Origin: a virus
Length of the DNA: 64,000 nucleotides
IMG/VR virus record: IMGVR_UViG_3300047510_001668
Location: 1-64,000 of that record
Reading direction: 5' to 3' (one strand)
Numbering within the stretch: position 1 is the first letter of the stretch; every line of letters starts with the position of its first letter. Below, in pieces: positions 15,270 to 52,656 of this stretch. The notes below the pieces were generated by a model, which saw only the letters and a list, made by a program, of their open reading frames with translations, ran no database searches and was not told the origin of the DNA. The position numbers were made by a program, and so were the translations under genes.

Positions 15270-15279
15270 ACATCACTCC

Positions 15280-15936: not shown

Positions 15937-15937
15937 A

Positions 15938-18693: not shown

Positions 18694-18730
18694 CGTCTAA
18701 CTCCTATTATTAATAAGTTTGGTATCAAGC

Positions 18731-18769
18731 AAAAGAGAGTTGAGGGCAATTATATCTGCCCCCAACTCT
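18731..18769 (-). terminator. Rho-independent terminator after the collagen fibre gene
   Basis: Minus strand AGAGTTGGGGGCA-GATATAAT-TGCCCTCAACTCT-CTTTT: 13-bp stem with one G-U pair. Confidence 0.75.
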
Positions 18770-18854
18770 ATTATTTACATTTGAATTTGTCGTAGTGACG
18801 CAACCTTTATTCATTTAATATCCTTTATTATAAAACCTAATTTAGTATACTACA

Positions 18855-21612: not shown

Positions 21613-21987
21613 TTATGGAGCGGATCCTGATACCGCTGGGTTTGGTCCTCCAAGATTTTGTCCCCACGGAGTTTCCGTTACGTCAGACCACGGGTCATTC
21701 TTCTTGGTGATTTGCTTGATGATTTGTTCTTGTACGTGGTCAAGATAATTTTCTACAACGATACCTTGAATCCAACTTAATACTTGTTCTTTGGTTAAAT
21801 CTTCGTATGCGGTAAAACTACCACTTGCGGGTAATGGAAGTGGCGTTGCGCCTTGGAATTGACCTGTGGTACCATTTTCATCGGTACCTGTGCATGTCCA
21901 ACGTACATGAACGATGACGTTATTCATGCCTTCAAGAGTTGGTGCCTTCCGAATATTAGTGATGTCCCATGTATATGTTATTGCCAT
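21613..21987 (-). CDS. Small fibre-associated protein
   Basis: MAITYTWDIT...VHVRWTCTGTD...FTAYEDLTKEQVLSWI; SD AGGAG; directly follows an S74 fibre gene. Confidence 0.75.
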   Translation of the reverse strand: MAITYTWDITNIRKAPTLEGMNNVIVHVRWTCTGTDENGTTGQFQGATPLPLPASGSFTAYEDLTKEQVLSWIQGIVVENYLDHVQEQIIKQITKKNDPWSDVTETPWGQNLGGPNPAVSGSAP

Positions 21988-22025
21988 TGTGTTCTCCTAC
22001 CAGTTAATCTGGTTCTGTTTGAGAG

Positions 22026-25000
22026 TTATGAGTTATTTATACGATTTTCCAGCTCTTCAATTTTTGCTTGTTGTGTTGCAATTTGTTGTTTCAATATTTC
22101 AATGTCATCGGTTTTCTTCAAAATGTTTCTTAATGCTGCGTGATAGTAAGGAATCATTTGCACATAATCCACAGTAAACTGTTCATTTGCAGGAGATGTA
22201 TGTCCATAAATATCAGTTTCGGCGGGTAATCCTTCCTTTGGTACAGCTGCCACAAGATGTCGGAATCCATTACGAATAACATCTTGAGCAATAAACCCTG
22301 TTTTCAATTCTCTGTCTAGTAATCCTTCATTTCCTATCTTTGCATTCTTCCAACGATAATGCACAGGATCAATATCACGTATGAAACTTAACCCTTCATT
22401 TTCAGAAATGATATTCACAACATCTTTTAAACGTCTATCAGAGTGGGTCATGTATTCTGCACAAATAATACGACTTCCATCATCAACATAAATGGCAAGT
22501 CCTACGCCTTGAGCACCGTTACCATAAGAACCATATCCAACGCCGGATGAAAGATAATAATATGATGCAGGGGAAGTGAATCCTATATTTCCAAGAACGG
22601 TGAGCATTGCGTAATTAGTACCATTATTTCCTATATGTGCTCTGTACATTCTAGATACATTGTTTGGGTCTGTATACCAAGCGGTGTCATTTTGGTCATA
22701 GAAGATAGGGGAACGTGAACTTCCTCCATGTATGGTATATCCATATGGGAATTCCGTATAACTTCCGTTCCAATACCAGATCCATCCACGACTGTTATCA
22801 TGCACCCCTACGTTGTCACCAGTAGTGGACATGAACACGTGACGAGAACCGATACCCCAACCACTCCATCCGTTACGTCCTGAACCGTATGTGGTGGCGT
22901 TTCCATAACTGTTACCAGCCGAATGTGCCCACCATGCTCCGTACCCATATGCTTGAGAATACCAACCAGTATCGGAGTGGTTTCTGAACCATCCGTAATT
23001 GTATATTTCGTTGGGGTCTATGCGACCCATGCGGCTGAAGTCGTTTGGATCCACATAATATCCGGTGTTGTTATAATCATAGAATATTGTTCCTCTCACA
23101 TCACTTGAAGCAACAACATTGTAAGACATTGATGACCCGAATCCACCATTAATTAACACCAATAATCCGTGGCTACTCATGTTTCCTGCCACACCACCTG
23201 CATTGGGATGTGACCATGCTATACCATACAAATTACCTGTGCTTGTGCCGTCAATAGGCAACTTATATGAGTTACCCATAGCGAATACGCCTTGATATCG
23301 TGTAGAAGCATATGCACCTACAATGGAACATCCGTAATTGTAATCTAAATAAAGATTTTCATTACCATCAATTCTGATACCACCGTTTGCCACGACATAG
23401 GATAAACGAGCGGTACCAGCGGGGTCTGTGTAATATGCTGTATTATTACTATCATAGAAAATGGGTGCCCTTAATGATCCCGCGGCTTCCAAATAAACAT
23501 CCGTATAGATGTAAGATGCGTTAAAGCCCATTTTTCTAGAACCCGCATACATTAAACTAACATCATGTGAACTATAACTACCTATAAAAACTGAACTGGG
23601 TGTATGAACATACATACCAGCTTCAATACCGGGTGTTCTAGCGTGTAAAACAAACTTTACGTGCGGTCCGTTACTAAATCTTATTTGTGTGCCCCATCCC
23701 CCTGGATCAGACCAATCATCTCCACTATCACCAACATAGAGGTTTCTTAAACGAGAACCTCCTGCTGGATTTAAATAAAACGCGGTATCATTATTATCAT
23801 AGAAAACGGGTGACCGCATTGATCCCACTGCCCAAAGATTACCAGAGGTATCACCATAGGTTACGTTTGAACCACTACCATTTCTAAAAATAAATTCTGA
23901 TCCATATTGGAAATACCAGTTGCTACTATGATATTGAATTTTTCCAGCAAATTCACCATCCCATGTTGCTGAATCTGCTCGCCAACTACCTACGGTACGT
24001 ATTGCTGTAGTCGAAGTTGGGTCTATGTAATATCCTGTATTATTACTATCATAGAAGATGGGGGATCTTACATCAGACCCCACATATAAAATATTTTCTA
24101 CACGAACATTACTATCACCTCTAGCAACAGAAAATACTTCGCTACCTTCATAATACTTAACAGAATTATTATAGAAACGTATGCCACCGTAAGTAGCGGC
24201 CGCACCTATTTTGATGCCTGTGTGCCAATCTAAAGTTAACTTAGTGTAATTACCATTATAATTTTCTAAAGTAGTGCCAATAGAATATCCTTGAATATCA
24301 CTTTCCCCATGATTATTGAAGAACAATGTACCCTGTACTGCTGTGGTATATACTTGTCCTGATGTGTATCCTAAATCAAGAGATTGTAATTCACTTTTAC
24401 TATTAGGGTTAACATAAAATGTGGTGTCATTACTATCATAGAAGATGGGAGCACGGAAATCACCACTGGTGGTGTAGGTGCCTGTGCCACCTGTTTTGCT
24501 ACTCAACCCATCAAAAGACAATCCTGTGATGTATCCAGAATTGTTTGTGAACTGGGATATGTTCATGCTGGTTAATGCACCTGCCGTGGTGGCAGTTGTG
24601 GCATTGCCACTTAATGCCGCTGTAATAGTGCCAGCTGTGAAGTTACCTGAACCATCACGCGCCACGATGGTTGATGCTGTGTTGGCTGATGTGGCGTTGC
24701 TGGTGACAGTGAATGTTGCAGCTCCAGACCCATTGTAGGTTTGTGACCCTGACAATCCTGTGCCAGACACGCCCATTGTTAATGTTGCTAAATTACTGCC
24801 TAGTGCCACACCTGAAATGGTACTATTAGCCAATTTGTTGTTGGCAATACTGCCTGCCAACATGGTGTTGGTCACAGTGCCTGTGTCTGTGGTGTACACA
24901 CCGTTTGTGACAGTTGAGGCATTGCCTGACAAAGCGCCAACGAATGTACCTGCCACGAAATTTTGCGACCCCACGGTCCATCTATCATTGGTTTCATCCC

Positions 25001-30453: not shown

Positions 30454-30879
30454 TTAACAAGTACAACTGTATTGAGCATCTATTACACCACTGCTATTGG
30501 TGGTGTAGATGTAGGTGCCATCATAGAATACAGCATTGGTCCAAGGACTGCTGGTGTTGTTGGTGTTGTACATCACACAACTTGTGGATAAAGACCCACA
30601 ATTGCTATATTTTTGTGTTCCTGTGAATCCACAACAATCATACACCGTGGACATCACCTGAACAAACACACCATACACAGACACTGCATTATGATTGTAT
30701 CCATACCATTCATTCATGGAATTCGGGGTGGCGCCGTCAGGACGAGATGTTGATGCCGTATTGATGGCACCATACGACCCGGATTCTGCTTGATTCAACC
30801 CAATGGTTGCTGTCCCTGAACGACCCAATTCAACATTGATGTTGTTCATGGAAATAGCGCCGTTTGTTTGTAATGTCAT
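30454..30879 (-). CDS. Small fibre-tip/adhesin-like protein
   Basis: N-terminal MTLQTNGAISMNNINVELG...PDGATPNSMNEWYGYNH motif shared with 46984..51219; Cys-rich C-terminal domain. Confidence 0.7.
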   Translation of the reverse strand: MTLQTNGAISMNNINVELGRSGTATIGLNQAESGSYGAINTASTSRPDGATPNSMNEWYGYNHNAVSVYGVFVQVMSTVYDCCGFTGTQKYSNCGSLSTSCVMYNTNNTSSPWTNAVFYDGTYIYTTNSSGVIDAQYSCTC

Positions 30880-38999: not shown

Positions 39000-39019
39000 T
39001 ATTTATATGTTTATTTATA
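39000..39019 (-). promoter_or_regulatory. Tandem T4-type late promoters (TATAAATA x2)
   Basis: Copies at 39000-39007 and 39012-39019; the first is 25 nt upstream of ATG 38975. Confidence 0.75.
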
Positions 39020-39030
39020 ACTGTCAGGCG

Positions 39031-39687
39031 TTAAACTATGGCATCCCACTTTCCCAAGGGGCAGGATGCTGCAGCTAACTGTGTTTTTGTTTTCATGAAA
39101 CACCCACATTCAGTGCACCGTTCAGTTTTGGAGTCGAATTTGTCACAGAATCTACACAGTTCCAATCTACGGTATCCTTCCTTGGCAGATGCCAGTACTG
39201 GTAGTCCTTTGGCGGCATTTTTGCCTGTTTTCCAGATGTCTTTGGCTAGATTTCTGGCTTGATGGAACACAGATGGATATTCTGACAAATCCTCATGAAT
39301 GTACTGCTCGGACTTCAGAACCTGCTCTTGCATCTTCTTACCAAATTTAGCCTCGTAGTACTCCAATCCTTCTTCCATCATCTTGTACGCCGTGTCAATA
39401 TCATGTTGCACATCATCTATGCAGTTGGTGGGACCACGCCAAAATGCCACGTTCAGGTTGTTGGGAAGAAAATAGTACAGTGAATTGGTCAACACTCTAG
39501 GGAAGGGCATGGAATCCTCTTGAAAACACATGGAGAACAACCCCACTGGTCGTGGATGTTTCTGCACTTCTTCCTTCAATTTTTCATGTAACACATTGTT
39601 GTCACAGTGTTCCATCACGAAAAACAGCACAGGATGATTGGAGGTGTTGATGATGTTGGTGATTTCTTTGTTGGTGTTTGGCAGCAT
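39031..39687 (-). CDS. Thioredoxin-like N-terminal region fused to a C-terminal Cys-rich (putative Zn-binding) domain
   Basis: PVLFFVMEHC at the N-terminus without a CxxC; C-terminal CRFC...CTECGCFMKTKTQLAAASCPLGKW. Confidence 0.6.
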   Translation of the reverse strand: MLPNTNKEITNIINTSNHPVLFFVMEHCDNNVLHEKLKEEVQKHPRPVGLFSMCFQEDSMPFPRVLTNSLYYFLPNNLNVAFWRGPTNCIDDVQHDIDTAYKMMEEGLEYYEAKFGKKMQEQVLKSEQYIHEDLSEYPSVFHQARNLAKDIWKTGKNAAKGLPVLASAKEGYRRLELCRFCDKFDSKTERCTECGCFMKTKTQLAAASCPLGKWDAIV

Positions 39688-39688
39688 C

Positions 39689-41959
39689 TCAGTTTTCTCG
39701 ACGTTCTTCAGGTTTATAATGAGCTATTCTATTATGTAGTATGGGTGATGCCAGTAGCACAGCAGGACGAATGTTACCTTTTCTGGTTTCTTGAAAAATA
39801 TGGCTCATCCAGGTTTGTTCATAAGGATGTTCCCACGTGGTATCCAGAAACACTTTTTGATTGCCTTCTTTTCCCATAATCATGGGCCAATTGGCGTAGT
39901 ACACATCTCCTGAAGCATACAACATCCCATCAAAATAGTCAATCTTTTTGAATTCTGTTCTTGGACAATCTGGATCCAAACCTGTGATGGGTAAACTGTT
40001 GTAATCAGGCCATACACTTGTTCGAACTGCTTGAGGCACGTTGTACCAGGAACATTGAATGTAATTATCCATGAATACTTCTGTGAAAGACAGTTTCAAG
40101 TAATCAAACTTTTCCTTCTTCATGATTTTTTGCACTTTCTGCAACAATCCCGGTACATAGGTTTGTAACCCATTTCGGCAGACATTTATCACAGGGGGTT
40201 GCATTCCCATGTCATCTTCCAAAAAGATGTAGTAGTCACTATCCGACTCTTGAAAATGTTTGGCAGCTAGAAATCTTCCTCGATTGATGCCTAGATTTTC
40301 ATGTGTGATGATGTGTTCAAATCCATATTGTTCACATATCTTCTTGTTTTCCTGTCTTGCTTCTTCATTGGTGGAATTGTCAATCAGGATTTTCCTGGTG
40401 CTGTTCAACCATTCTGGATGTTTTTCATACGTGGATAGCGTATGACGAACCTGTTCAGGGAAATTGAAAGTCAACATGTACAAGGACAATTTCGTGTTGG
40501 ACAAGTCTAAATTCACAGGAGCGAATTTTTTTCGTTTCACTGGAACCGGTTCCAACACCACATTGTCATCAATGACATTTTGTACAAACTTCACAACCAA
40601 TCCATTACCATCTAATGCATATCGACGATACTTCTCAGGATGAAGATAGGACATAATGGTGAATACACTTTCTTCAGTTCCCAAATAGCCTTGATTGATG
40701 CTGCTGGACAATAGTGAGTAGTAGGTGCTATTGGCTTCTCGTATGATGTCTTTATGACCCCCAAATAATCCCCCTCGACATACGTAATTCACAGAGGCAT
40801 CTGACATCTTGTTCATTCCCTTGATGTCGAACCCATGAATTTCTGTATTGGTTTCATACGGATAGGATAGAAACAGGAAAGGATACAAATACATTTCCAA
40901 TTTTTCAAAGAAGTTGCTTTCTGTGAACAGTTTCCCATGTACTGTTTGTGTGATACCTGCGTCCAACCAGATGAAGTAGTCAGTGCTGAAAGGATTCCAA
41001 CACACGCTATCATGCAGAAGAAACATCTTGCTCATCACGATGGGGTTGTAATATTCCAGGGTGGCTTGAGGAGAATTTTTCAACCAACCATGCTCACCGG
41101 TTTGATTCACCCATTTTTCACTGGTTCTGATGGATTGCAATTTATCCCAGAATGGAGAAAACAAATTTTTCACATCATCTAGATTGAAAACTTTAATCAG
41201 TGTGTTGGCAGGATTTCTCCGTTCACGAACAAAATTTTCAAATTGTTCAGGAACAAACACAATCATGTTTTCATCACACTCCAGAAGATGGCTGAAATGT
41301 TCTAGATAATGTTCTGCGTTTCTTCCTGGGCGTTGAATGTCCCATAATCCTGTGACCACAGTGACGTTTTTTCTGTCGCTCTTGTATATCACCACATGAT
41401 TTCCTAGATTTTCCACTCTATGACCTAATGTAAACGCTTCAAATTCTTCCTTGTATTCAATGAACAATTCTTCAGTGCCTGGATATCCTCCAATGTCCTC
41501 AATCACATAGATGCCACCAGGATTCAATCTAGCCCATAAATTTTTCAAGGTTTTCATTTGGTACTTTGGGTCATGATTACCATCATCTATGATGATGTCA
41601 AAACGTAAATGGCTTAGATGATTTTGACATAGCATTTCATTGGATGAATCAAACAGAAGGGTTGTGATTCTGTTTTCTGAAAACATGCAATCATCGGCAA
41701 TGTCCACACCATACACGTGCGCATTAGAGAAATAATCTCTCCATACACGCAAAGACCCTCCTGGGGTGTAGTGACTGTAGTGTTGGGTGTTGCCTTGAAA
41801 ACTACTAGGATGTTCAGGATTCAATGTGCCTATCCCAATTTCCAAGATGGCTTTCACATTGGTTTTTATAGGTTCGAAAATTCTGGAATAGGTACGAGTG
41901 TAACCACTTAATGATTTATCCGTCCCGTATTTCTCCACCAATTCAATTAAGTTGCTCAT
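39689..41959 (-). CDS. Triple fusion: SAM-dependent (sugar O-)methyltransferase + HtrL/WlaTC-like domain + GT-A domain
   Basis: YGTDKS...ILEIGIG...FDIIIDDGNH...GGIYVIEDI; VTVVTGLWDI...YFIWLDAGI...GGLFGG...GTEES; LYMLTFN...LIDNST...YYIFLEDD. Confidence 0.8.
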   Translation of the reverse strand: MSNLIELVEKYGTDKSLSGYTRTYSRIFEPIKTNVKAILEIGIGTLNPEHPSSFQGNTQHYSHYTPGGSLRVWRDYFSNAHVYGVDIADDCMFSENRITTLLFDSSNEMLCQNHLSHLRFDIIIDDGNHDPKYQMKTLKNLWARLNPGGIYVIEDIGGYPGTEELFIEYKEEFEAFTLGHRVENLGNHVVIYKSDRKNVTVVTGLWDIQRPGRNAEHYLEHFSHLLECDENMIVFVPEQFENFVRERRNPANTLIKVFNLDDVKNLFSPFWDKLQSIRTSEKWVNQTGEHGWLKNSPQATLEYYNPIVMSKMFLLHDSVCWNPFSTDYFIWLDAGITQTVHGKLFTESNFFEKLEMYLYPFLFLSYPYETNTEIHGFDIKGMNKMSDASVNYVCRGGLFGGHKDIIREANSTYYSLLSSSINQGYLGTEESVFTIMSYLHPEKYRRYALDGNGLVVKFVQNVIDDNVVLEPVPVKRKKFAPVNLDLSNTKLSLYMLTFNFPEQVRHTLSTYEKHPEWLNSTRKILIDNSTNEEARQENKKICEQYGFEHIITHENLGINRGRFLAAKHFQESDSDYYIFLEDDMGMQPPVINVCRNGLQTYVPGLLQKVQKIMKKEKFDYLKLSFTEVFMDNYIQCSWYNVPQAVRTSVWPDYNSLPITGLDPDCPRTEFKKIDYFDGMLYASGDVYYANWPMIMGKEGNQKVFLDTTWEHPYEQTWMSHIFQETRKGNIRPAVLLASPILHNRIAHYKPEERREN

Positions 41960-43578
41960 GATTGTATTTTTCTGAAGTAGTAGTGTTCAATAATTAAACT
42001 ATCCAACTGTGTTTTCTCTAAAATCGTGAAGGCATCTTGCACTGTGGATAATATAGGTTTTCCATCCACGTTGAATGAGGTGTTCAACAATACTCCTATA
42101 CCTGTTTGTTTCTCAAACTCAGTTAACAAATCATATAACCAAGGATTCTGTTCCCTGGTCACAGTTTGCACACGAGCGGTGCCATCCACATGTGTGATGG
42201 CTGACAGCTTTTCCTTCCATTCCTCACGTACCTGAGGACAGAAGGACATCCATCTGGATTCTTTGTCCCACTGAAAATATTTGTTCACATCCTCCAGACG
42301 AACCACAGGTGCGAAAGGACGATACCATTCTCTGTGTTTCACTTTGGCATTCAGAATATCCTTCATCATGGGGATGGATGGGTTACATATGATGCTTCTG
42401 TTTCCTAATGCACGTGGTCCGTGTTCCGACCTCCCACGAGCTACACCTATAATTTTACCTTGAACCAACTCATTTACGATGTCCACATCATCCAGAAAGT
42501 GGGAAGTGAATCTGACATTGCTGTTTTGTATATAGTAAGAAAGATTGTCCAAGTCCAACAATTCAGTTCCTGAATAGGTGGTGTCCGCGGCGTGTACGGG
42601 TTTCATGTGATTCAACAAAATACCTAGCGCCACACCACAGTCATTAGGATCAGGACCCACGAACACATCTCGGTGGAATTCTTCTACTAACCGCGTGTTC
42701 AGCAATATGTTCAGACCACAACCGCCAGTCATGCCAATCGGTAATGTGGGATATTCTTCCATGAAGGGAACAGCCACCTCCAGGAAACTATCCTCAAATG
42801 CACGTTGGGACGTGGCTGCTATGTCCCAGGCTAACTGACCTTCCAAACGTTCAGTGGTGGTGAATTTCACTCCTATCTTCTCACCTAACTCATCCACGTG
42901 AGTTTGAAAGTTCAGCCCATCTAAATTGGACTTGTAGAATTCCATGAATGCAGGCATCCACACCTGATTAACCACACCATAGGAAGAAAGACCCATCAAT
43001 TTACCAGGATACACCAGATTACCATCACCCAAACATTCAAACTTGATGTCTTTCAGATAGTTGCCTAGTGCCATGTATGGGAACCCTAAATCATAATAGA
43101 CATGAGTGCTATCTATGTTGGGATTGTTGACTTGTTTCAGTAGTTTCGGTGACTCACCACGAACACAGTAATAGATGTTGAACTTGCCATCATTGCCTCC
43201 TCCATCAAAAGAAAACACCAACATTTCTTGATGAGGTGATTGATAGAAACAACCAGCAGCATGTCCTTGATGATGCAAACAATGAATGTAGTTTTTTGCA
43301 GGAATGAATTGTTCCAACTGATGTTTTTCATAGATGATGACATCAGAATTCAAATAATAGCAGTTTTCAAATTGTTCTATGCCAAGCTTGTTCATGATCC
43401 ATTTAGGAATGAACTCGGCGTAAAACAACAGGTCCTCAGTTTTAGGACACTTGTATTGTGCCAACCCGCTGTTTTTGTAATTCAGAAAACGTTCCAGTTC
43501 CAACACCATAAGGATTTCATTGTTTTCTTCCACCACGTATGCGGCGTTATGGGAACCGTAAAAAGAAATATTGGCCAT
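41956..43578 (-). CDS. O-carbamoyltransferase, NodU/CmcH/TobZ family
   Basis: Start moved to MANISFYGSHNA. ELERF, HHQGHAA, FDGGG, GKLMGLSSYG, GGCGLN, EHGPRALGNRSI, KHREWYRPFAP, HVDGTARVQTV, LNTSFN. Confidence 0.93.
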   Translation of the reverse strand: MANISFYGSHNAAYVVEENNEILMVLELERFLNYKNSGLAQYKCPKTEDLLFYAEFIPKWIMNKLGIEQFENCYYLNSDVIIYEKHQLEQFIPAKNYIHCLHHQGHAAGCFYQSPHQEMLVFSFDGGGNDGKFNIYYCVRGESPKLLKQVNNPNIDSTHVYYDLGFPYMALGNYLKDIKFECLGDGNLVYPGKLMGLSSYGVVNQVWMPAFMEFYKSNLDGLNFQTHVDELGEKIGVKFTTTERLEGQLAWDIAATSQRAFEDSFLEVAVPFMEEYPTLPIGMTGGCGLNILLNTRLVEEFHRDVFVGPDPNDCGVALGILLNHMKPVHAADTTYSGTELLDLDNLSYYIQNSNVRFTSHFLDDVDIVNELVQGKIIGVARGRSEHGPRALGNRSIICNPSIPMMKDILNAKVKHREWYRPFAPVVRLEDVNKYFQWDKESRWMSFCPQVREEWKEKLSAITHVDGTARVQTVTREQNPWLYDLLTEFEKQTGIGVLLNTSFNVDGKPILSTVQDAFTILEKTQLDSLIIEHYYFRKIQS

Positions 43579-43580
43579 GG

Positions 43581-44492
43581 TTACACTAGAGGCTTCAAAA
43601 AGAAGTGAGAGAAGGAAATTTGACCTGGTTGAAACGCGTTGGTCCAATCTTCATGATAGAACGTATCAAACACCCAATTTTTGAACCAGGTTCTGTGTGT
43701 AGCATTCACATAGGCCATGATGGACTGGTCACTACACACTTCATTAGCAGACAACACCTGTTCTATAACATTTTCACATGTGTTCAAGTATGGAAGCAGT
43801 TTCTCGGAAGACCCTCCAAAAAATCCTCCCACAGGGTGAGTGGACTGATAATCTACATTTATATTCAATATTTTATTGAAATTTGCAGGTGAATCATCTG
43901 ACGTAGCTCGACAGAGATTTATGATGCCATCACCTGCATACTGATTGATACCATCCAATACACTGGGAGTGAATGCCTGGTCATAATGATACACTTTGTA
44001 TTCGTTATCTTGGAAATTTTGCGGATAATGCGGGAACTCAAGCTCACTTCCATACCGACTAGAAAATGATGGAAACAATCCTGTGTGTGATAATCCAGAA
44101 TCAATCCAATACATCATGGTGTTAGGCTTATGTTCCATGCCTAGGAATAGAAATTTCATCCAGTACACCACTGTGGGCCTTGTATAGAATCCCACAGCTT
44201 CTGGACTGTTGTATTTTTCTTTCTTACTGGTACGTATGGCGTACACCCGGTCTTGGTATGGATTGTTTTCCAATTCATAGATTTTGATGGACAAATTCTG
44301 TAAGTTGAATGTTTCTTTCAATTCCACCAATTGATTGTATCCTCTATCACCTGGATCTGTGTAGCACACGATTTCTCCCATGTTACTGATGGTTGCCAGA
44401 GAATATTTGTACCATCGGTCGCGGTTCACCTGACCCCAAAAGGGCTCCCCTGCGTGGAACGGATAGTAAGAAGTTACCAGTTTTGTTTTCAT
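43581..44492 (-). CDS. HtrL/WlaTC-like putative glycosyltransferase
   Basis: KLVTSYY...YWIDSGLSH...VGGFFGGS...SDQSIM pattern parallels the middle domain of 39689..41959. Confidence 0.6.
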   Translation of the reverse strand: MKTKLVTSYYPFHAGEPFWGQVNRDRWYKYSLATISNMGEIVCYTDPGDRGYNQLVELKETFNLQNLSIKIYELENNPYQDRVYAIRTSKKEKYNSPEAVGFYTRPTVVYWMKFLFLGMEHKPNTMMYWIDSGLSHTGLFPSFSSRYGSELEFPHYPQNFQDNEYKVYHYDQAFTPSVLDGINQYAGDGIINLCRATSDDSPANFNKILNINVDYQSTHPVGGFFGGSSEKLLPYLNTCENVIEQVLSANEVCSDQSIMAYVNATHRTWFKNWVFDTFYHEDWTNAFQPGQISFSHFFLKPLV

Positions 44493-45727
44493 AGTTTGTG
44501 TTCTATCCGTTCAGCCCATCCTCGAGATTCACTATAGGCCCACGCCACCATTCGTTTTGGTTCTTTTTCAAAATACTGAAAATATTCTTCATAGTGAACA
44601 GGAATGTTCTGTGTTAAAAAAAGTTGTAGTTGATGTCCTTCAATGCTCTTAGTATGGACAGCTTTACCATCTTCATCATCAAATGCCACTAGGATGGATT
44701 TATAATCATCCGCTGGCAATTCATTTCTATTTATTGTGACTAGATGATAGAAAGATTTAGACCAGGGACTATCAGCAGGAGTGGGAGGATATCCATTATG
44801 TAATGTGTGCTTCTGTACCGATTTATTTTTAAAATTCACACCTGCATAGGCTTCATAATCTTCAATGGTTCTGGCCGTGCCTAAATCATATCCAGACAAA
44901 TCAAATCCATTGTCTTCCACTCGGAACAATTGGCGAATTTTTGCTCGAGCAATGTTCTGTTTTTCACCCCAATTCACACCCAATTTACTATCATCATCCC
45001 ACTTCAATTTTCCAGCACGTTCTTCTCTCATGGTGGAATGCCATATCACCAACTTATGAGGATGAAACATGTCATACCCATGTGTGTATGAACGCACCGT
45101 CAGATTGATTTCTTCACCACTGAAGTAGATGTCTGGGTCATGGAGAATTTCCTTGGCCCACTCACTTCGCGCAAAACAGAAATGTCCGGATAGAAATCTA
45201 CTCATGGGAGGTTCCGTCATGGTCTCCCAGCCGTGTAACAATGAGGGTCTGATGAAAATGGTACCATGGGGATAAAAACATGCAAATTGTTGTTGCCATG
45301 GCTCCATGGACCTGCCATCTGGATCATTGAATGGGTCATACAATGGGAGATAGGCTGCTAGAATAGGTTTGTGCCCTTTCTGTTCCAGTTGTTGATGCAT
45401 GTCAATCAACGTTTCATCCCAATGTTTAGCGAACCGATGATGAGAATCCAACTGTAGAATGTAATCCTGGTCAGTCAACAACTTCTCATTGATTTGAGCG
45501 CGCGCCCAAGGGAGCCCTTGTGCTTCTGTGTACAACACATCCATGATATGAAATCTGGCATCATTTCGATATTCATCTAGATTGTCGAATCCATCCTCAG
45601 GATGATATTGTCTGCAAATACCAAAATGCACTCTGTCCGGATGTTTAGCCTTGTTCAATGCATCTTGAATGGTGGGGACCAGCTCAGGATCCCGATAGGC
45701 AGGGAGGTGTAATAGTATAGTTTTCAT
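44489..45727 (-). CDS. GT60/Gnt1-like polypeptide alpha-GlcNAc transferase, paralogue 2
   Basis: Start moved to MKTILLH (ATGA overlap). AYRDPEL, VHFGICRQ, AQGLPWARAQI, LQLDSHHRF, FLSGHFCF, DPDIYFSGEEINLTVRSYTHGYDMFHP. Confidence 0.85.
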   Translation of the reverse strand: MKTILLHLPAYRDPELVPTIQDALNKAKHPDRVHFGICRQYHPEDGFDNLDEYRNDARFHIMDVLYTEAQGLPWARAQINEKLLTDQDYILQLDSHHRFAKHWDETLIDMHQQLEQKGHKPILAAYLPLYDPFNDPDGRSMEPWQQQFACFYPHGTIFIRPSLLHGWETMTEPPMSRFLSGHFCFARSEWAKEILHDPDIYFSGEEINLTVRSYTHGYDMFHPHKLVIWHSTMREERAGKLKWDDDSKLGVNWGEKQNIARAKIRQLFRVEDNGFDLSGYDLGTARTIEDYEAYAGVNFKNKSVQKHTLHNGYPPTPADSPWSKSFYHLVTINRNELPADDYKSILVAFDDEDGKAVHTKSIEGHQLQLFLTQNIPVHYEEYFQYFEKEPKRMVAWAYSESRGWAERIEHKL

Positions 45728-46950
45728 AATGTACCTTTGATGGGGTCCAACCAACCGTTGGAATGAGTCTGTGGCCATACCACCCAGGATTTGGCTTCCA
45801 CATTGGAGTAGAATTTTCTCCAGATTTGCACGAATTTATTTTCTGGATCCTGAGTCATGATTCGATGTATTTCTTCAGGTGAGGCATCTTCTCGGTGTAT
45901 TTCATTACCTTCTGCATCTTTAAATGCCACAGCCCAACAAATGTAATCTTTTTCAGATACACTAGGACGGTAGACATCTATGCAGTATTTCTTGTATCCA
46001 GATAACTGAGCTTCATAATTTTCCAAAGGCGTGGGAGGATTCTTCTCTTCCACTGTGTGTTTATGAACACGCCGAGTAAGAAATTCAATACCAGCATATC
46101 TTTCATACTCTTGTAATGTTCTACTAGTTCCTAATCCATAGGTTTCAATAGGCGTGGCAGGTTCATCCACACCCAACAATTTTCTGTTTCGTTCTTTAGC
46201 CTTTTTGTCCTTCTCTGACCAGTTGTTGTCAGCCCAATGTTTGGACTTGTCCTTTCTGGTGTATTCATGCCATATGTACACCTTGTGTGGGTGAAACAAA
46301 TCATACCCATGAGTATAGGCACGCACAGCCAAAGAGATTTCCTCCCCATGAAAATAGTATTCTGGGTCATAAGGAACGTTTGTACAAAATTCACCTAAAG
46401 TGAAAATGTAATGTGCTGAAAGAAACCTGGCTGGGATGGGGGCGTGTAGCTGTGTATGATTTGGTATCGTGCCAGGTGTGAAATGCACCACGCCATCAGG
46501 TGCAAATCTATCGAAATTCAATTTCCAAGGTTCTTGGCCTCGTTCTTCCTTGCCTGGTGTGTAGGCGGTGGCGTAGGCAGTCAACAACGGTTTCTCATGG
46601 CCGCTGGATTGCAAGCCTTGCAACATCTTCACCAACTTGATGTCCCAGTGTTTGTCAAATCTATGGTGAGAATCCAACTGGAGATAGTAGGTTTCACCTT
46701 GATACAATTTCTGCATCTCATGACGGGCCCAACACACACCCTGGGACAACTTGTAGTCCACATCCACAATTTTGAATTGTGGATGATTCCTGTATTCTTC
46801 TATGGTGTCCCAGGTGTCCTCTGCGGCATGTTGCCACATGATGCCAAAATGCAGCCGTTCTGGAAAAGCTGCTTGTTCCAAACAATTTTTTATGGTAGCC
46901 AACAATTCAGGGTCACGGTAGGCAGCAATGGCAATGAATATTGTGTTCAT
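45724..46950 (-). CDS. GT60/Gnt1-like polypeptide alpha-GlcNAc transferase, paralogue 1
   Basis: TIFIAIAAYRDPEL, LHFGIMWQ, SQGVCWAR, YLQLDSHHRF, FLSAHYIF, VPYDPEYYFHGEEISLAVRAYTHGYDLFHP. Confidence 0.88.
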   Translation of the reverse strand: MNTIFIAIAAYRDPELLATIKNCLEQAAFPERLHFGIMWQHAAEDTWDTIEEYRNHPQFKIVDVDYKLSQGVCWARHEMQKLYQGETYYLQLDSHHRFDKHWDIKLVKMLQGLQSSGHEKPLLTAYATAYTPGKEERGQEPWKLNFDRFAPDGVVHFTPGTIPNHTQLHAPIPARFLSAHYIFTLGEFCTNVPYDPEYYFHGEEISLAVRAYTHGYDLFHPHKVYIWHEYTRKDKSKHWADNNWSEKDKKAKERNRKLLGVDEPATPIETYGLGTSRTLQEYERYAGIEFLTRRVHKHTVEEKNPPTPLENYEAQLSGYKKYCIDVYRPSVSEKDYICWAVAFKDAEGNEIHREDASPEEIHRIMTQDPENKFVQIWRKFYSNVEAKSWVVWPQTHSNGWLDPIKGTL

Positions 46951-46975
46951 ACATCCTCATAGTATCATTTTCAAT

Positions 46976-46983
46976 TATTTATA
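46976..46983 (-). promoter_or_regulatory. T4-type late promoter (TATAAATA) heading the glycosylation cluster
   Basis: Exact motif 26 nt upstream of ATG 46950. Confidence 0.75.
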
Positions 46984-49900
46984 TTAACATCCTGGGTTGT
47001 TTATGTCAATCACCTGACCACCAACGTTGGTTTGTGCATTGTCACCATTGGCATATTGAATGTATTGGCTTGCGATGCTACCTGAGCAATTGCTGTTGGT
47101 GTACAGATAGCAATTGATTCCTAGAGTGAAACAATCAGAGTATGATTGGTATGGATAATTACCCACCTGACAATCATTTATACCAGTCACATATTCAAAG
47201 GATCCAAGGTTGTAACAGGTGACTGCTGAAGGTGTGGGTGATGGTGTCACGCTAGGTGTTGGTGTTACAGGAGGTGTGGGAGATGGCGTGGTGGAAGGTG
47301 TTCTGGTAGGTGTTATGGATGGTGTGATGCTGATGCTAGGTGTGGTGCTTGGTGTCACACTAGGTGTTGGTGTTGGACTTGGGCAGGTGGATGGACCACC
47401 TGTCACCATGTAGGTACCACCATTGTTGCCGTAAGTCCAATATTGTCCGTTGTTTGTGTTGTATCCTACATAACCGCTGGCACCTAGATTGTAATTGACG
47501 GTTAGTGCAGCACTAGTGTACCCAATACAACCTGTGGTGAGTGCGGCAGAGCAGGTTGCATTGAAGTAGATTGGGTCACCATTGCTAGTACAAACCTGAG
47601 TTAAGTCTGTGGATACATCCAACCGTTGACCTTGAGAAGTTGGTGTTGGTGTAGGGGTGGGTGTGCGAGTCACCGAAGGTGTGACACTAGGTGTGGTGGT
47701 GTTACTTGGTGTGACAGTTGGTGTGATGCTTGGTGTCACAGATGGTGTTACCGATGGTGTCACTGTGTTACTTGGTGTTCTGGTTGGTGTGATGCTTGGT
47801 GTTACAGATGGTGTGACTGAAGGTGTGGCAGTGTTACTTGGTGTTCTGGTTGGTGTGATGCTTGGTGTTACAGATGGTGTGACTGAAGGTGTGGCAGTGT
47901 TACTTGGCGTGATGCTAGGTGTGACTGAAGGTGTAGCTGTGGTACTTGGTGTTATGGTTGGTGTGATGCTGATGCTAGGTGTGGTGCTTGGTGTCACACT
48001 TGGTGTTCTGGTAGGTGTTGGTGATGGAGTTGGTGATGGGCAGGTTTCTTGAGTGCCATAAGCTGTGAAATTGCCAGGTGAACCATCATACAAGAAATAC
48101 ACACCTTGTGTTGTGGTGGCATAACCAGCCACTTCAAAGGCAGATGTCAATTGAATATCATTGTACAACTTACAACCAGCTCCAAAATTGGTGTAGCAAG
48201 AAGTGTTCACATACTTTTGCACATATGTGGCACCTGAGAACGCACATATTTGTGTATCAACTTCTGCAAAGTGTGCTAGTTGTCCTGCTGAAGATGTAGA
48301 TGGTGTTACAGAAGGTGTTACGCTAGGTGTCACACTAGGTGTAGCTGTGTTACTTGGCGTGACAGATGGCGTGATGCTTGGTGTCACAGATGCAGTCACA
48401 CTAGGTGTTGCTGTGATGCTAGGTGTGATGCTAGGTGTCACACTAGGAGTAGCTGAAATTGAAATGCTTGGTGTGGTAGATGGTGTGATGCTTGGTGTCA
48501 CTGAAGGTGTGGCAGTGTTACTTGGTGTCACACTTGGTGTCACACTTGGTGTCATGCTAGGTGTTGGTGATGGACAGGTTTGTTGAGAACCGGTTACTTC
48601 GTATGTGCCACCATTGTTCTCATAGCGCCAGTAAGTACCAACAGCGCCAGGCTTATATACCCAACCTGCAATATTAACAGGATTGGTTAGACCAGCGTTG
48701 GTGTATAACCGGCATCCAGCTGATATGGTGGCGGCACAGGTGGGATTGGCGTAGTATGGATCACCTCCATCAAGACAAGCATCCGCTTCAGTGGCAGCTA
48801 ACCGTAGGAAAGCACCTGGTGTTGTTGGTGAAGGTGTGACTGAAGGTGTTTTTGAAGGTGTGACTGATGGAGTTGCTGTTTCAGATGGTGTGATGCTAGG
48901 TGTCACTGAAGGTGTGATGCTAGGTGTCACTGAAGGTGTAGCAGTTTCAGATGGGGTTACACTTGGTGTTGCTGTTTCAGATGGTGTGATGCTAGGTGTC
49001 ACTGAAGGTGTAGCAGTTTCAGATGGGGTTACACTTGGTGTTGCTGAAGGTGTGGCACTTGGAGTTGGTGATGGGCAGAATTGCTTACTACCCACCACTT
49101 GACTGAATGTGTAATCCCAATATTCACCTTGGATGGTTGAAGCGAGACCGTCTACATTGTACACTGTCAACAATTGAATTTCATCATACAACACACATCC
49201 CGCACCAAATGATGCTCCTGCACAACTTGGGCTGGTGTATTTCAATACTGTGGTACCAGTAAGTGAACAAATGTCAGCTTCATAACTGGCAATGTAAACT
49301 CCGGAACCAGCAGGTGATGTGGATGGTGTCACGCTTGGTGTCACACTAGGTGTGGCTGAAATGGATTCAGATGGTGTGATGCTTGGCGTGATGCTAGGTG
49401 TGATGGAAGGACTGGCGCATGTATATGGTCCAAGAATTGCTTCGTAACTTCCACCATTGTTACCATAAGTCCAGTACTGACCCACAGTACTGGTGGTGTA
49501 TACATAACCATCACCTGTGAATGAATTAGTTAACCCTGCATTTGTGTACAACTTACATCCGGTTGTGAAGGATGAGGCACAACTGTTGTTGATGTAATAT
49601 GGGTCACCTTGGTCTGCACATACTTCACCGATTGTGGCTGCAAATCTAGCTTGCAACACACCCGGGCTGGTGGGTGAAGGTGTTGTGGAAGGTGTTCTGG
49701 TAGGTGTTGGTGTTGGATCAGGAGTTACAGAAATGGAAGGTGTTACTGAAGGTGTTATAGATGGTGTTCTGGTAGGTGTTGGTGTTGGGTCAGGTGTAGG
49801 ACATGGCTGTTGTGTACCATAGGCCTGATAGTTACCTGGGCTACCACCATACAGGAAGTACACACCTTGAGTTACCGTGGCATAACCATCCAATTCAAAT

Positions 49901-51219
49901 GGTGTAGTTAAAGCACCATCATCGTACAACTTACAACCAGCTGTGAAGCTAGTGTAACATGTGTTGTTAACATACTTCTGCACATAGGAGGCACCGCTGA
50001 ATGAACAGATGTCAGCTTCATAGATGGCAAAGTGTGCCAAAGAAGCTCCTGCTGATGTGGAAGGAGTTACAGATGGTGTGACAGACGGAGTAGCTGAAAT
50101 GGATTCAGATGGTGTGATGCTTGGCGTGATGCTTGGTGTTGCTGAAGGTGTGGCACATGTGAATGGGCCTCCTGTTACTTCCCAACTTCCACCATTGTTC
50201 TGATAGTTCCAATACGTGCCCACGGTGCTGGTGGTGTATACGTACCAAGGACCAGAGCCAGTTAACTCACCATTATCTACACTATTAGTTAATGAAGGAT
50301 TTGTGTATAGCTTACATCCTATAGTGAATGTCGTGGCACATGAAGCATTCACATAGTATGGGTCACCTTGGTCGGCGCAAGCATCATTGATGGTGTAAGC
50401 CAACCGTGCGACATTGGAGCCATTGGTAGATGGTGTTGGGGTGGGTGAAGGAATTGCGCAAGAAGTTGGTCCGGATAGTACGCCGGATGCCACTTGATAA
50501 TAATTACCTGAACCGTCACCATAATAACCATTAGATGCCATCACACTACAATCAGGTTGTGTGTATGTTTCGATGCCTCCTCCACTCACATAAAGAGTGA
50601 TGGCTACAGGTGCCGCACAAGCAGATGCAATAGAAGCTTGAACCGTGGACACAAGACCCACAGTGGACCCATAACACGGTGTAGGTGTTGGAGTTGGAGT
50701 TAAGCTAATCGTGGGTGATGGAGAAGGACAACTTTGTAATGTTCCATATGTTATGAAATTACCAGGAGTGCCATCATACAAGAAATATGAGCCCTGAGTC
50801 ACCGCGGCATATCCACCCACTTCAAATGGTGTGGTTAAAAGATTATCATCATACAACTTACATCCAGCTGTAAAGCTGTTGTAACATGTGTTGTTTACAT
50901 ATTTTTGTACATAGGTGGCACCTGAGAATGAACATATATCAGCTTCATAAACAGCAAAATGTGCCAATTGAGCGGCAGCACTTGTTGATGGAGTTATTGA
51001 AGGAGTGATGCTAGGTGTAGGAGTGATAGCAAATGTGTGGTCATACCCATAAAACTCACTCATTGCGTGAGGAGCTATTGCATCCGGCTTAGCTGGACTA
51101 TCATTGTTTATCCCGGAGGTAGATAGTGATGCTAAACTGGAATTGGCAGCAGTAGGTGATAATCCCTTTTCAGAGTTGATATCACTGATTTTAATTTCCC
51201 CGCTCGCAACTATGGCCAT
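46984..51219 (-). CDS. Mucin-like virion protein: Cys-rich modules separated by Pro/Thr/Ser repeat linkers
   Basis: Long TPSVTPSITP tracts alternating with about 70-80-aa Cys-containing modules; N-terminal motif shared with 30454..30879. Confidence 0.85.
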   Translation of the reverse strand: MAIVASGEIKISDINSEKGLSPTAANSSLASLSTSGINNDSPAKPDAIAPHAMSEFYGYDHTFAITPTPSITPSITPSTSAAAQLAHFAVYEADICSFSGATYVQKYVNNTCYNSFTAGCKLYDDNLLTTPFEVGGYAAVTQGSYFLYDGTPGNFITYGTLQSCPSPSPTISLTPTPTPTPCYGSTVGLVSTVQASIASACAAPVAITLYVSGGGIETYTQPDCSVMASNGYYGDGSGNYYQVASGVLSGPTSCAIPSPTPTPSTNGSNVARLAYTINDACADQGDPYYVNASCATTFTIGCKLYTNPSLTNSVDNGELTGSGPWYVYTTSTVGTYWNYQNNGGSWEVTGGPFTCATPSATPSITPSITPSESISATPSVTPSVTPSTSAGASLAHFAIYEADICSFSGASYVQKYVNNTCYTSFTAGCKLYDDGALTTPFELDGYATVTQGVYFLYGGSPGNYQAYGTQQPCPTPDPTPTPTRTPSITPSVTPSISVTPDPTPTPTRTPSTTPSPTSPGVLQARFAATIGEVCADQGDPYYINNSCASSFTTGCKLYTNAGLTNSFTGDGYVYTTSTVGQYWTYGNNGGSYEAILGPYTCASPSITPSITPSITPSESISATPSVTPSVTPSTSPAGSGVYIASYEADICSLTGTTVLKYTSPSCAGASFGAGCVLYDEIQLLTVYNVDGLASTIQGEYWDYTFSQVVGSKQFCPSPTPSATPSATPSVTPSETATPSVTPSITPSETATPSVTPSETATPSVTPSITPSVTPSITPSETATPSVTPSKTPSVTPSPTTPGAFLRLAATEADACLDGGDPYYANPTCAATISAGCRLYTNAGLTNPVNIAGWVYKPGAVGTYWRYENNGGTYEVTGSQQTCPSPTPSMTPSVTPSVTPSNTATPSVTPSITPSTTPSISISATPSVTPSITPSITATPSVTASVTPSITPSVTPSNTATPSVTPSVTPSVTPSTSSAGQLAHFAEVDTQICAFSGATYVQKYVNTSCYTNFGAGCKLYNDIQLTSAFEVAGYATTTQGVYFLYDGSPGNFTAYGTQETCPSPTPSPTPTRTPSVTPSTTPSISITPTITPSTTATPSVTPSITPSNTATPSVTPSVTPSITPTRTPSNTATPSVTPSVTPSITPTRTPSNTVTPSVTPSVTPSITPTVTPSNTTTPSVTPSVTRTPTPTPTPTSQGQRLDVSTDLTQVCTSNGDPIYFNATCSAALTTGCIGYTSAALTVNYNLGASGYVGYNTNNGQYWTYGNNGGTYMVTGGPSTCPSPTPTPSVTPSTTPSISITPSITPTRTPSTTPSPTPPVTPTPSVTPSPTPSAVTCYNLGSFEYVTGINDCQVGNYPYQSYSDCFTLGINCYLYTNSNCSGSIASQYIQYANGDNAQTNVGGQVIDINNPGC
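47620..49080 (-). repeat. Largest (T-P-S-x)n mucin-type repeat blocks (about 47640-48040, 48290-48570, 48820-49080)
   Basis: 12-bp-based degenerate tandem DNA with larger near-exact duplications (about 63 nt near 47770-47900). Confidence 0.9.
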
Positions 51220-51231
51220 GAACGACTCCGA

Positions 51232-52656
51232 TTACTTATTGCAATTGCACGTATTATTTTCTACTTTTGTATTTAGTTCCTTGATAGCCTCAATTAATAG
51301 TGCAATCACTTTATCATATCGAACAGCCTTGTAACCATCCCAGCGGTCCCGAACTGCCAACGGAAGAACAACTTCCACTTCTTGTGCCACCAATCCCACG
51401 TCATTTCCTGTGAATCCGTGAACTGATTCTAACTCAGGCTTCCAGGTGTAGGTGACACCATTCATAGCCAACACTTTGGTTAATGCGTCTGTGATGTTGG
51501 TGATGTTGTCCTTCAATCGTGAGTCTGATGTGGAAAATGCCACCACATCACCTGCAGCATCAATTCTTCCATTAGTGCCACTTGGTGTGATGCCAGTACC
51601 AACAGCTAACCCTGTACCTGAAACGTGAACTGCACCATACACGGTTAAGCGACCATTCTGGTCAATCACCATTTTCCTGTGATTGTTGTACATGTCGTTG
51701 CCTGAGATGGTTTGATTGGTGCCACCTGTTGCAGGGATGGTGTAAAATTCAATACCATTACCTCCCACAGATGACAACATCATGGAACCACCATTATTTG
51801 TCCCATCACCTATGACAGTGAAATTTCCTGTGGAAGAATCAAACCCTACATTGTAAGCAAACCCACCTTTGTAATCCATGTTGCTACCACTAGGGTCTGT
51901 TCCAAGACTTCCAAATATAGAAGATGACCCCGCTGATACCGTGGACATGAAAGCAGGGCCTGATGTCAAGGCGGCTGAGGTTGAGAAATAGGAACCTTGC
52001 ACACCACCATACAACAATGCCTTGGGTGTGGTTCCATCAGTGGAAAATGCTAGTGCATTATTGGTGCTGGACTTGATAACTAGATTGCCAGCAGAGCTGG
52101 TGTTGTTGTTCAGCACTCCAAATGTTACACCTGCATCCTTCAAGAACACATCTCCATCTTCTGCATCCAGAATGATGTCTCCTGTGGCGTCCACAGTGAA
52201 GTCTGCTGAAGCGTTCACTTGTGCAATGGTGGGTGTTGTGAGAGTTGGGCTGTTGGCAAACACCACACTGCCTGTACCTGTTTCATCTGTGATGGCAGCT
52301 GCCAATTGTGCAGATGTGGCAACCAATGTGTTGCTACTCAAATTGATGGTCTTGTTGGTGAAGGTTTCACTTCCTGACAATGAAGCCAGTTGCAATGCCA
52401 CAGTGCCATTGTAGAACTTCAAGGTGTTGGAATTGTTCCAAACGTCACCTGCCACAGGGGAGGTGGGATTGGTGGCAGATGATGGAAAATTCACACTGGC
52501 ATTGGCCGCGACCGGTGTGTCCAATGTCAACTTGCCCGTCATCGGGATGGTTCCATCCCGTTCTATCTTTTCTGTGTTCAAGTTGGTGAAGTTGGCATCC
52601 ACCTGTGCATTTGTGAGTGGGCCGCCATTCGTTGCTCTGAGTGTAATTGATGCCAT
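51232..52656 (-). CDS. Tail fibre with S74 chaperone domain
   Basis: MASITLRATNGGPLTNAQVDANFTNLN start; STSDSRLKDN...DVGLVAQEVE...AVRYDKVIALLIEAIKEL. Confidence 0.88.
   Translation of the reverse strand: MASITLRATNGGPLTNAQVDANFTNLNTEKIERDGTIPMTGKLTLDTPVAANASVNFPSSATNPTSPVAGDVWNNSNTLKFYNGTVALQLASLSGSETFTNKTINLSSNTLVATSAQLAAAITDETGTGSVVFANSPTLTTPTIAQVNASADFTVDATGDIILDAEDGDVFLKDAGVTFGVLNNNTSSAGNLVIKSSTNNALAFSTDGTTPKALLYGGVQGSYFSTSAALTSGPAFMSTVSAGSSSIFGSLGTDPSGSNMDYKGGFAYNVGFDSSTGNFTVIGDGTNNGGSMMLSSVGGNGIEFYTIPATGGTNQTISGNDMYNNHRKMVIDQNGRLTVYGAVHVSGTGLAVGTGITPSGTNGRIDAAGDVVAFSTSDSRLKDNITNITDALTKVLAMNGVTYTWKPELESVHGFTGNDVGLVAQEVEVVLPLAVRDRWDGYKAVRYDKVIALLIEAIKELNTKVENNTCNCNK

Follow-up and report, generated by a model that had tools for sequence, protein, structure and literature searches.

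A late-promoter operon with paired GT60 glycosyltransferases as a candidate O-glycosylation system for Thr-Pro-Ser-rich fibre proteins of a T4-like phage

Why would a phage keep genes for sugar transfer and sugar capping among the genes of its tail fibres? The question is raised by an operon on the minus strand of a 64,000-nucleotide (nt) window, the first 64 kb of the 177,878-bp viral contig IMGVR_UViG_3300047510_001668 in IMG/VR (positions are those of the window; those on the whole contig are labelled G000). The operon lies among structural genes, is flanked by fibre genes, and has a late-type promoter at its head. Among the products of its six genes are two capping enzymes and a total of five putative transferase domains. 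With moderate confidence, we favor the reading that these enzymes would act late and in the cytoplasm, building O-glycans step by step on the Thr-Pro-Ser spacers and tails of the phage itself, with the first step made by enzymes of glycosyltransferase family 60 (GT60).

The operon, its enzymes and its candidate substrates

The operon and its immediate neighbors, in the order of transcription, are as follows (aa, amino acids).

51232-52656, minus strand: short fibre, 474 aa, with an S74-type chaperone domain (PF13884, E = 1.3e-13) and matches to many tail-fibre PHROGs
46984-51219, minus strand: 1411-aa candidate substrate with an N-terminal anchor, Cys domains and Thr-Pro-Ser linkers
46976-46983, minus strand: TATAAATA, an exact match to the T4-type late promoter consensus
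45724-46950, minus strand: GT60a, 408 aa (PF11397; phrog_24687, E = 1.6e-139)
44489-45727, minus strand: GT60b, 412 aa (PF11397), with an ATGA overlap with GT60a
43581-44492, minus strand: HtrL-like protein, 303 aa (TIGR02192, E = 2e-4; a paralogue of the HtrL domain in the 756-aa fusion)
41956-43578, minus strand: NodU/CmcH-type O-carbamoyltransferase, 540 aa from its ATG (PF16861, PF02543; phrog_1601)
39689-41959, minus strand: 756-aa three-domain fusion of an O-methyltransferase (residues 1-195), an HtrL domain (199-444) and a GT-A domain (~490-756)
39031-39687, minus strand: 218-aa product of the last operon gene (DUF6171, E = 7e-4; phrog_13558, E = 9e-15)
39000-39019, minus strand: two further TATAAATA motifs, the start of the next operon

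Both GT60 proteins were matched by the PF11397 profile far above its cut-off of 21 bits (GT60a, E = 3e-73 and 247.8 bits; GT60b, E = 4.5e-50 and 171.5 bits), with model positions 1-45 and 93-350 of 352 covered. The motifs AYRDPEL, LQLDSHHRF, YF(H/S)GEE, and THGYD(L/M)FHP were present in both, and they include the D-x-H metal-binding site of this GT-A group. Because the two are only 39% identical over their full length, we regard them as old paralogues. A sequence search of the PDB with GT60a found no solved relative. The characterized members of the family, Gnt1, which acts on a hydroxyproline of Skp1, and the Trypanosoma cruzi ppGlcNAcT, are polypeptide alpha-GlcNAc transferases (PMC6939170). 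By analogy, we propose that GT60a is an initiating polypeptide glycosyltransferase; UDP-GlcNAc as the donor, the linkage, and the acceptor residue are likewise suggested by the protist enzymes.

The remaining enzymes could lengthen and cap a glycan. Residues 199-444 of the 756-aa protein were matched by PF09612 (HtrL) with E = 5.8e-14 and 52.8 bits against a cut-off of 24.1. The 303-aa protein was matched weakly by TIGR02192 (21 bits) and is paralogous to that domain (BLASTP E = 4e-8), so that it is a putative GT-A-type glycosyltransferase; homologues were found in the related cassettes of loci L011, L012, L014, and L020 and of the phages XacN1 and RAS14. For the final ~270 residues of the 756-aa protein, the match was a weak one to GT2 (E = 0.003). 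An AlphaFold model of the HtrL and C-terminal half (predicted local distance difference test, pLDDT, 81.5) was matched in Foldseek, with E values of 1e-9 to 1e-7, to enzymes with two GT-A domains, namely LARGE1, Mimivirus R699, the chondroitin polymerase K4CP, LH3, COLGALT1, and the heparosan synthase PmHS2; the single GT-A proteins GnT-I and TarP were also matched. In the model, this half folds as tandem GT-A domains like those of bifunctional transferases. Near its N-terminus, the same protein resembles MycE and TylE, two sugar O-methyltransferases, over residues 4-157 (PDB 3ssm, E = 7e-15). In the carbamoyltransferase, both halves were matched (PF16861, E = 8e-66; PF02543, E = 1.6e-22), and since its score against the NodU equivalog NF041651 (E = 6e-43) is far under the cut-off, it is a member of the family and not NodU itself. 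None of the operon proteins has a hydrophobic stretch of membrane-spanning length. The 218-aa protein ends in a Cys-rich ribbon and has no homologue in the related cassettes examined.

The genes are tightly packed, with junctions of -4, -4, +2, -4, and +1 nt. Directly after the TAA of the 1411-aa gene comes the promoter motif, which stands 25 nt ahead of the GT60a ATG; a GAGGA ribosome-binding site lies in between, and the two copies at 39000-39019 open the next operon and therefore mark the downstream end of this one. The motif occurred 11 times in the window against 3.07 expected, a number reached in 0 of 100 shuffles, and in the part of the contig that belongs to this phage (see below) it occurred 22 times on the coding strand and twice on the opposite strand. 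No gene for the late sigma factor gp55 was found in the annotation of the first 50 kb of the cultured relative HTVC008M. The first-pass annotation, which was made from the sequence alone, had described the tandem GT60 pair, the two HtrL-like domains, the GT-A domain, the methyltransferase, and the carbamoyltransferase as one overlapping-gene operon behind an exact late promoter at the stop codon of a protein full of TPSVTPSITP-type tracts. All of these features were borne out, the HtrL assignment of the 303-aa protein being weak in itself and supported by paralogy.

The protein upstream of the promoter is the main candidate substrate. Its 1,411 residues are 17.6% Thr, 13.5% Ser, and 12% Pro, and it is built from a 64-aa N-terminal anchor and eleven Cys domains of ~80 aa, mostly of two types that alternate. 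The linkers consist almost wholly of Thr, Pro, Ser, Val, and Ile; they comprise ~500 residues, of which 256 are Ser or Thr, and contain 90 TPS and 45 TPS[VI]TPS units. The Ser codons of the repeat are drawn from both the AGY and TCN boxes, which indicates that the protein sequence of the repeat is maintained, and some repeat units of 66-72 nt are recent DNA duplications, which indicates that it is still expanding. A tblastn search with this protein, run with the low-complexity filter on, gave no match. The Cys domains gave 0 BLASTP matches at 1e-4 among the open reading frames (ORFs) of all fetched loci, and for a model of the anchor with a Cys domain Foldseek gave no significant PDB match, its BFVD matches being uncharacterized phage proteins alone.

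The anchor recurs in a small paralogue, encoded directly after a fibre gene with an S74-type C-terminus.

30454-30879, minus strand: 141-aa paralogue consisting of the 64-aa anchor and one Cys domain, without a Pro-Thr-Ser (PTS) linker (AlphaFold pLDDT 85)

The two copies of the module (51031-51219 and 30691-30879, minus strand) share a consensus around GQIS..DIN.ELGRS...AIN...P...SEWY.YNH. In a full HMMER scan, the module was found in 510 protein clusters, always at residues 1-65, and those clusters with a taxon were all viral. What follows it varies, from Cys domains and RCC1 repeats to Gly-rich regions, ConA/LamG, and BACON domains; no Pfam or PHROG family matched the module itself. This pattern suggests that it is probably a universal attachment module with exchangeable distal domains, and for that reason we read the 1411-aa protein as a fibre-attached appendage. 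The 474-aa short fibre, whose gene lies 12 nt upstream, is its probable carrier.

PTS tracts were found in 3 of the ~169 ORFs of the contig: the 1411-aa protein, a 278-aa fibre-like protein, and a Ser/Ala-rich lipoprotein, whose tract is of another kind. The 278-aa protein (G000:124216-125052, minus strand; 8217-9053 in locus L271) matches phrog_4527, a short tail fibre (E = 1.5e-15), and phrog_1980. Its last ~40 residues are (TPSV)n, in the style of the 1411-aa linkers, and to judge from this repeat, the tail is likely a second substrate.

GT60 and Pro/Thr-rich repeats in other phages

A GT60a relative was found in 19 other IMG/VR loci, 17 of them distinct, and in 12 of these 17 a Pro/Thr-rich ORF lies within a few kb of GT60. 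This ORF usually stops ~40 nt before the GT60 start, and a second one often follows the HtrL+GT-A gene. GT60 and HtrL+GT-A recur together in most loci long enough to show neighbors; the partner enzymes differ from locus to locus and include a GT34-like protein, a GT10 fucosyltransferase, an SDR epimerase/dehydratase, and an FkbM methyltransferase. One of the 12 is IMGVR_UViG_3300008448_000004 (G001; loci L020 and L021), a complete genome of 180,934 bp that gave no match when searched with the present phage's baseplate wedge protein of T4 type. There the GT60 cassette follows, and is flanked by, Pro/Thr-rich genes whose 1323-aa and 1067-aa products consist for about half of their length of TPTx repeats. 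Two further enzymes are encoded in the G001 cassette, an SDR epimerase/dehydratase and a GT10 fucosyltransferase, and they suggest that the glycan occurs there in a fucosylated form.

The association was also examined in the reverse direction, a check that the first-pass annotation had itself named. Viral contigs were sampled by a (TPTx)3TPT DNA pattern alone, and controls were sampled by a random 14-mer; the counts for repeat-bearing loci and contigs are those among the matches listed. GT60 and/or HtrL+GT-A lay within the few kb fetched at 9 of 80 repeat loci. PF11397 scored above its cut-off in 12 of 47 repeat-pattern contigs and in 0 of 50 controls (Fisher p = 7e-5), and among contigs of ~100 kb or more in 8 of 13 and 0 of 7, respectively (Fisher p = 0.015). 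Adjacency (12/17) and co-occurrence (12/47 versus 0/50) bear only indirectly on whether the acceptor is a polypeptide (Thr/Ser or hydroxyproline).

Among cultured phages, tblastn detected a GT60 homologue in four jumbo phages of Xanthomonas and Stenotrophomonas, namely XacN1, RAS14, CM1, and Xoo-sp13. XacN1 and RAS14 carry the core cassette (GT60, carbamoyltransferase, HtrL-like, and HtrL+GT-A) at 38-49% identity; in CM1 and Xoo-sp13 the GT60 homologue alone was seen. XacN1 (AP018399; loci L032 and L033) has 51 TPTxTPT-coding sites versus 0 in the control, and at least 15 of its proteins have TPTVTPSVTP-type linkers, several of them encoded by very large ORFs near tail-sheath and baseplate genes. 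These linker proteins include the paralogue series ORF232-237, ORF369, ORF370, and ORF372 beside tail-sheath genes, and ORF384, which is of virion size and annotated as a phosphodiesterase. Purified XacN1 virions gave at least two Schiff-stained glycoprotein bands, the proteins of which were not named, and ORF328 or ORF334 was suggested as their maker (PMC5852040). ORF334 is the GT60 homologue.

The family extends well beyond these phages. More than 7000 metagenomic proteins matched GT60 at E<=1e-10 among 8000 candidates scored, and among prokaryote genomes only three related loci, all from SAR86, were returned, at an uninformative 30% identity. The phage family could be a sister or the source of the protist GT60 enzymes.

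Origin of the window and genes outside the operon

The first-pass annotation had allowed for the window being one genome. It is not: the contig is a chimera, and window positions 1 to ~21,850 come from another phage, with the junction near 21662-22030. Window 40879-21662 was recovered at 99.95-100% identity in independent assemblies from four samples (two contigs of ~156 kb and two shorter ones), a region that takes in the 218-aa gene and part of the 756-aa gene, at the downstream end of the operon, and the adjoining flank. Past 21662, one independent contig goes on with the terminal 1.4 kb of the present contig, to which it is 100% identical, and not with window 1-21,661. The final 184 nt of the contig (G000:177695-177878) repeat window 21662-21845 at 94.6% identity. 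The two parts also differ in GC content (39.2% on the left versus 44.7% on the right) and in the strand of TATAAATA, with 6 copies on the plus and 0 on the minus strand in the left piece versus 2 and 22, respectively, in the right part. Since the independent assemblies join window ~21.7 kb to the contig end, the true genome is ~156 kb and closes on itself.

All long ORFs of the window are on the minus strand. Baseplate wedge proteins of T4 type and large proteins of the fibre module are encoded at 52.8-64 kb, and long-tail-fibre-like proteins with S74-type C-termini at 26-36 kb. The closest cultured relative of the baseplate wedge protein is that of Pelagibacter phage HTVC008M, and at 36% identity the phage is a distant T4-like myovirus. 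The GT60a protein is recorded from 4 contigs, and none of 50,697 phage records was matched by the operon in a megablast search. Elsewhere on the contig, a 593-aa DUF6267 protein (G000:130217-131998, minus strand; 14218-15999 in L271) has a C-terminal cytidylyltransferase-like PHROG match and adjoins a virion structural gene.

The chimeric join bears directly on the acceptor. The only 2-oxoglutarate-Fe(II) (2OG-Fe(II)) oxygenase gene found in the window, at 14685-15269, had been proposed as a supplier of hydroxyproline if the window were one genome. It lies within the foreign piece, in a collagen-like-fibre cluster of its own, and because the contig is mis-joined it does not belong to the same genome as GT60. 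A phmmer search at E<=1 found no homologue of it in the true genome, other oxygenase families not being searched exhaustively, and none was found near GT60 in the 19 related loci or the 80 repeat loci. (phmmer was used since a PF13640 profile search missed even the gene at 14685.) The proposal is therefore dropped. As to donors, the earlier observation that no nucleotide-sugar synthesis genes are visible held across the whole contig for the three families searched (ThyA-family, SDR epimerase, and NTP-transferase genes); with no SDR epimerase or nucleotidyltransferase gene in the contig, the donor sugars should come from the host.

The foreign piece has features of its own. TATAAATA occurs there on the plus strand only (10418, 14650, 16156, 17544, 20960, and 20993), though the long ORFs run on the minus strand. 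Of the six sites, four fall between genes, and the coding strand there would read TATTTATA. Its cluster at 14685-20933 (minus strand) encodes a 692-aa collagen-repeat fibre with an S74 chaperone, a DUF6445 protein, two GT2 proteins, and the 2OG-Fe(II) oxygenase, and looks like a system for collagen-type hydroxylation and glycosylation of a phage fibre.

Proposed pathway, alternatives and relation to known systems

The pathway that we favor would run as follows. Late in infection, the T4-type late promoter would drive the six translationally coupled genes. One or both GT60 enzymes would start the chain at the Thr/Ser hydroxyls of TPS[V/I] units, with a nucleotide sugar of the host as donor, most likely UDP-GlcNAc. 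Up to three more sugars would then be added by the 303-aa HtrL-like protein and the bifunctional HtrL+GT-A protein, and the fused methyltransferase and the NodU-type carbamoyltransferase would cap hydroxyls of the chain. The main product would be a 1411-aa protein bound to its fibre by the 64-aa anchor and carrying eleven Cys domains on glycosylated spacers; the (TPSV)n tail of the 278-aa fibre-like protein would be a second target. We infer both the size of this glycan and its benefit, which may lie in spacers that are stiff, protease resistant, or masked. Of the first-pass reading, the enzyme families and the operon stand. Its central idea, a phage that glycosylates its own mucin-like appendage, gains comparative support from the repeats that adjoin and accompany GT60 in other phages, from the core cassette of a cultured phage with Schiff-positive virion proteins, and from the late promoter, the soluble enzymes, and the lack of a lipid-carrier or DNA-modification context among the annotated genes. 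Its proposal on the oxygenase and the supply of hydroxyproline fails.

Several points weigh against this pathway. Support for it in this phage is comparative and not biochemical, and we infer the virion location of the 1411-aa protein from gene position and the anchor module only. Five of the 17 GT60 loci have no Pro/Thr-rich ORF, all five being fragments of 2-17% completeness, and the co-occurrence counts ignore shared ancestry and habitat. In XacN1 and RAS14, the cassette adjoins DNA polymerase and RNase H with no repeat gene beside it. The periodic acid-Schiff-positive bands of XacN1, the protein identity of which was not given, could stem from its other glycosyltransferase. In addition, the HtrL_YibB family is otherwise known only from lipo-oligosaccharide (LOS) and lipopolysaccharide core loci, without an assayed function.

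This last point would fit a cassette that builds or modifies a non-protein envelope glycan of the infected cell, such as LOS, with the PTS protein as an unglycosylated fibre with flexible linkers; such a change could keep other phages out or prevent new virions from adsorbing to cell debris. PHROGs class GT60 and the carbamoyltransferase as auxiliary or host-takeover functions, and in T4-like marine phages carbamoyltransferase and oxygenase genes are often found apart from the fibre genes (for example, gp003-005 of HTVC008M). We nevertheless judge this explanation unlikely. None of the enzymes has a membrane segment, the annotated genes of the cluster include no lipid-carrier transferase, flippase, or polymerase (no dedicated search was run), and the operon has a late promoter and sits inside the fibre module. 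Moreover, the characterized GT60 enzymes Gnt1 and T. cruzi ppGlcNAcT act on polypeptides (PMC6939170), and GT60 is tied to Pro/Thr-repeat genes by both adjacency and co-occurrence. An acceptor site outside the PTS tracts on a phage or host protein, for example in the capsid or the Cys domains, would leave the repeat association to shared lineage and habitat. The statistics, which do not correct for phylogeny, would allow this, as would the frequency of Pro/Thr linkers in large aquatic phages (at least 80 loci by the (TPTx)3TPT pattern). It is improbable all the same: repeat genes adjoin the cassette in phages as unlike as this T4-like one, G001, and the L005-type contigs, and in this genome the TPSV unit occurs only in the two fibre-like proteins.

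Hydroxyproline as the acceptor on the phage protein, formed by a prolyl hydroxylase as in Skp1 in place of Thr/Ser, is suggested by Gnt1, the cytoplasmic member of the family, which is hydroxyproline specific (PMC6939170) and with which the phage enzymes share solubility; one residue in four of the repeat is Pro. However, the sole 2OG-Fe(II) oxygenase of the window is in the foreign piece and has no homologue in the true genome or near GT60, so that we give this possibility little credence. Still less can be given to hypermodification of phage DNA with a decorated glycan in the manner of the T-even phages and others whose bases are glycosylated. The position of the XacN1/RAS14 cassette next to DNA polymerase and RNase H would fit it, so that DNA modification may still apply in those two phages, and DNA-glycosylating phage enzymes are well known (PMC12619734). 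However, the promoter is late and not early or middle, the contig has no ThyA-family hydroxymethylase to make an acceptor base, and the operon lies in the fibre module, which together make DNA glycosylation unlikely here; GT60 is also a family without a known nucleic-acid acceptor, and the link to repeat proteins would be left unexplained. A free oligosaccharide resembling a Nod factor, which the NodU-type enzyme and the methyltransferase brought to mind, was rejected in view of the missing NodC, NodB, and NodA and of the repeat-protein link.

Beyond this phage, the same logic may extend to large aquatic and soil phages generally. These would perform a cytoplasmic mucin-type O-glycosylation in which GT60 starts on (T/S)-P-(T/S)-x fibre tags and variable extension and capping give each phage its own glycan, a generalization that we advance tentatively and hold at slightly less than even credence. 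If true, it would assign a function to a large unnamed class of phage genes (the PF11397 phage clade with its HtrL and carbamoyltransferase partners, thousands of metagenomic members) and make the common Thr-Pro(-Ser) fibre stalks carriers of glycans. Such glycans would affect adsorption, resistance to proteases and grazing, the stickiness of particles in water, and the immune recognition of therapeutic phages. The cassette also offers tools for mucin-type glycoengineering in the bacterial cytoplasm, with XacN1 on Xanthomonas as a tractable model, and the finding prompts the question of how the phage clade relates to the GT60 enzymes of protists.

Phage-encoded glycosylation of virions as such is already known; so far the demonstrated cases are mycobacteriophages, with hints from a few other phages. 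Literature searches on GT60 or PF11397 with phage, and on Pro-Thr linkers with glycosylated virions, returned no description of the present system. In mycobacteriophages, the phages' own glycosyltransferases glycosylate C-terminal extensions of capsid and tail-tube subunits (Freeman et al. 2023, as cited in PMC12619734). The fibre-like protein described here likewise has a C-terminal extension, its (TPSV)n tail. In contrast, the passage cited names no GT60 initiator for them, the host group and phage type are different, and the candidate acceptors here are long internal linkers of fibre-module proteins. The glycans of the PBCV-1 capsid and the Mimivirus fibrils resemble the proposed system in that soluble, virus-encoded glycosyltransferases equip virion proteins with decorated glycans and need no secretory pathway of the host for it, and the HtrL+GT-A model resembles Mimivirus R699; these are viruses of eukaryotes, however, with other transferase families and acceptor motifs.

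XacN1 is the closest cultured case, with a homologous core cassette (ORF334-330), many linker proteins, and Schiff-stained virion glycoproteins. It differs in having a single GT60 and no fused methyltransferase, and in the location of the cassette between the baseplate region and DNA polymerase; its authors (PMC5852040) did not tie ORF334 to GT60, to its neighbors, or to repeats. With the protist GT60 enzymes, the phage proteins share a near end-to-end match to PF11397 and the conserved motifs, including LQLDSHHRF. Like Gnt1 they lack a membrane segment and would be soluble, and like the T. cruzi mucins their candidate acceptors are rich in Thr and Pro. Unlike the protist enzymes, they are predicted to work in the bacterial cytoplasm, occur as two paralogues, and have a conserved C-terminal extension of ~100 aa beyond the Pfam model. 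The likeness to the Skp1 pathway, in which a two-domain bifunctional transferase acts after Gnt1 (PMC6939170), ends with the partners: the phage GT60 genes are not accompanied by a prolyl hydroxylase, and their extension and capping set consists of HtrL, GT-A, carbamoyltransferase, and methyltransferase domains.

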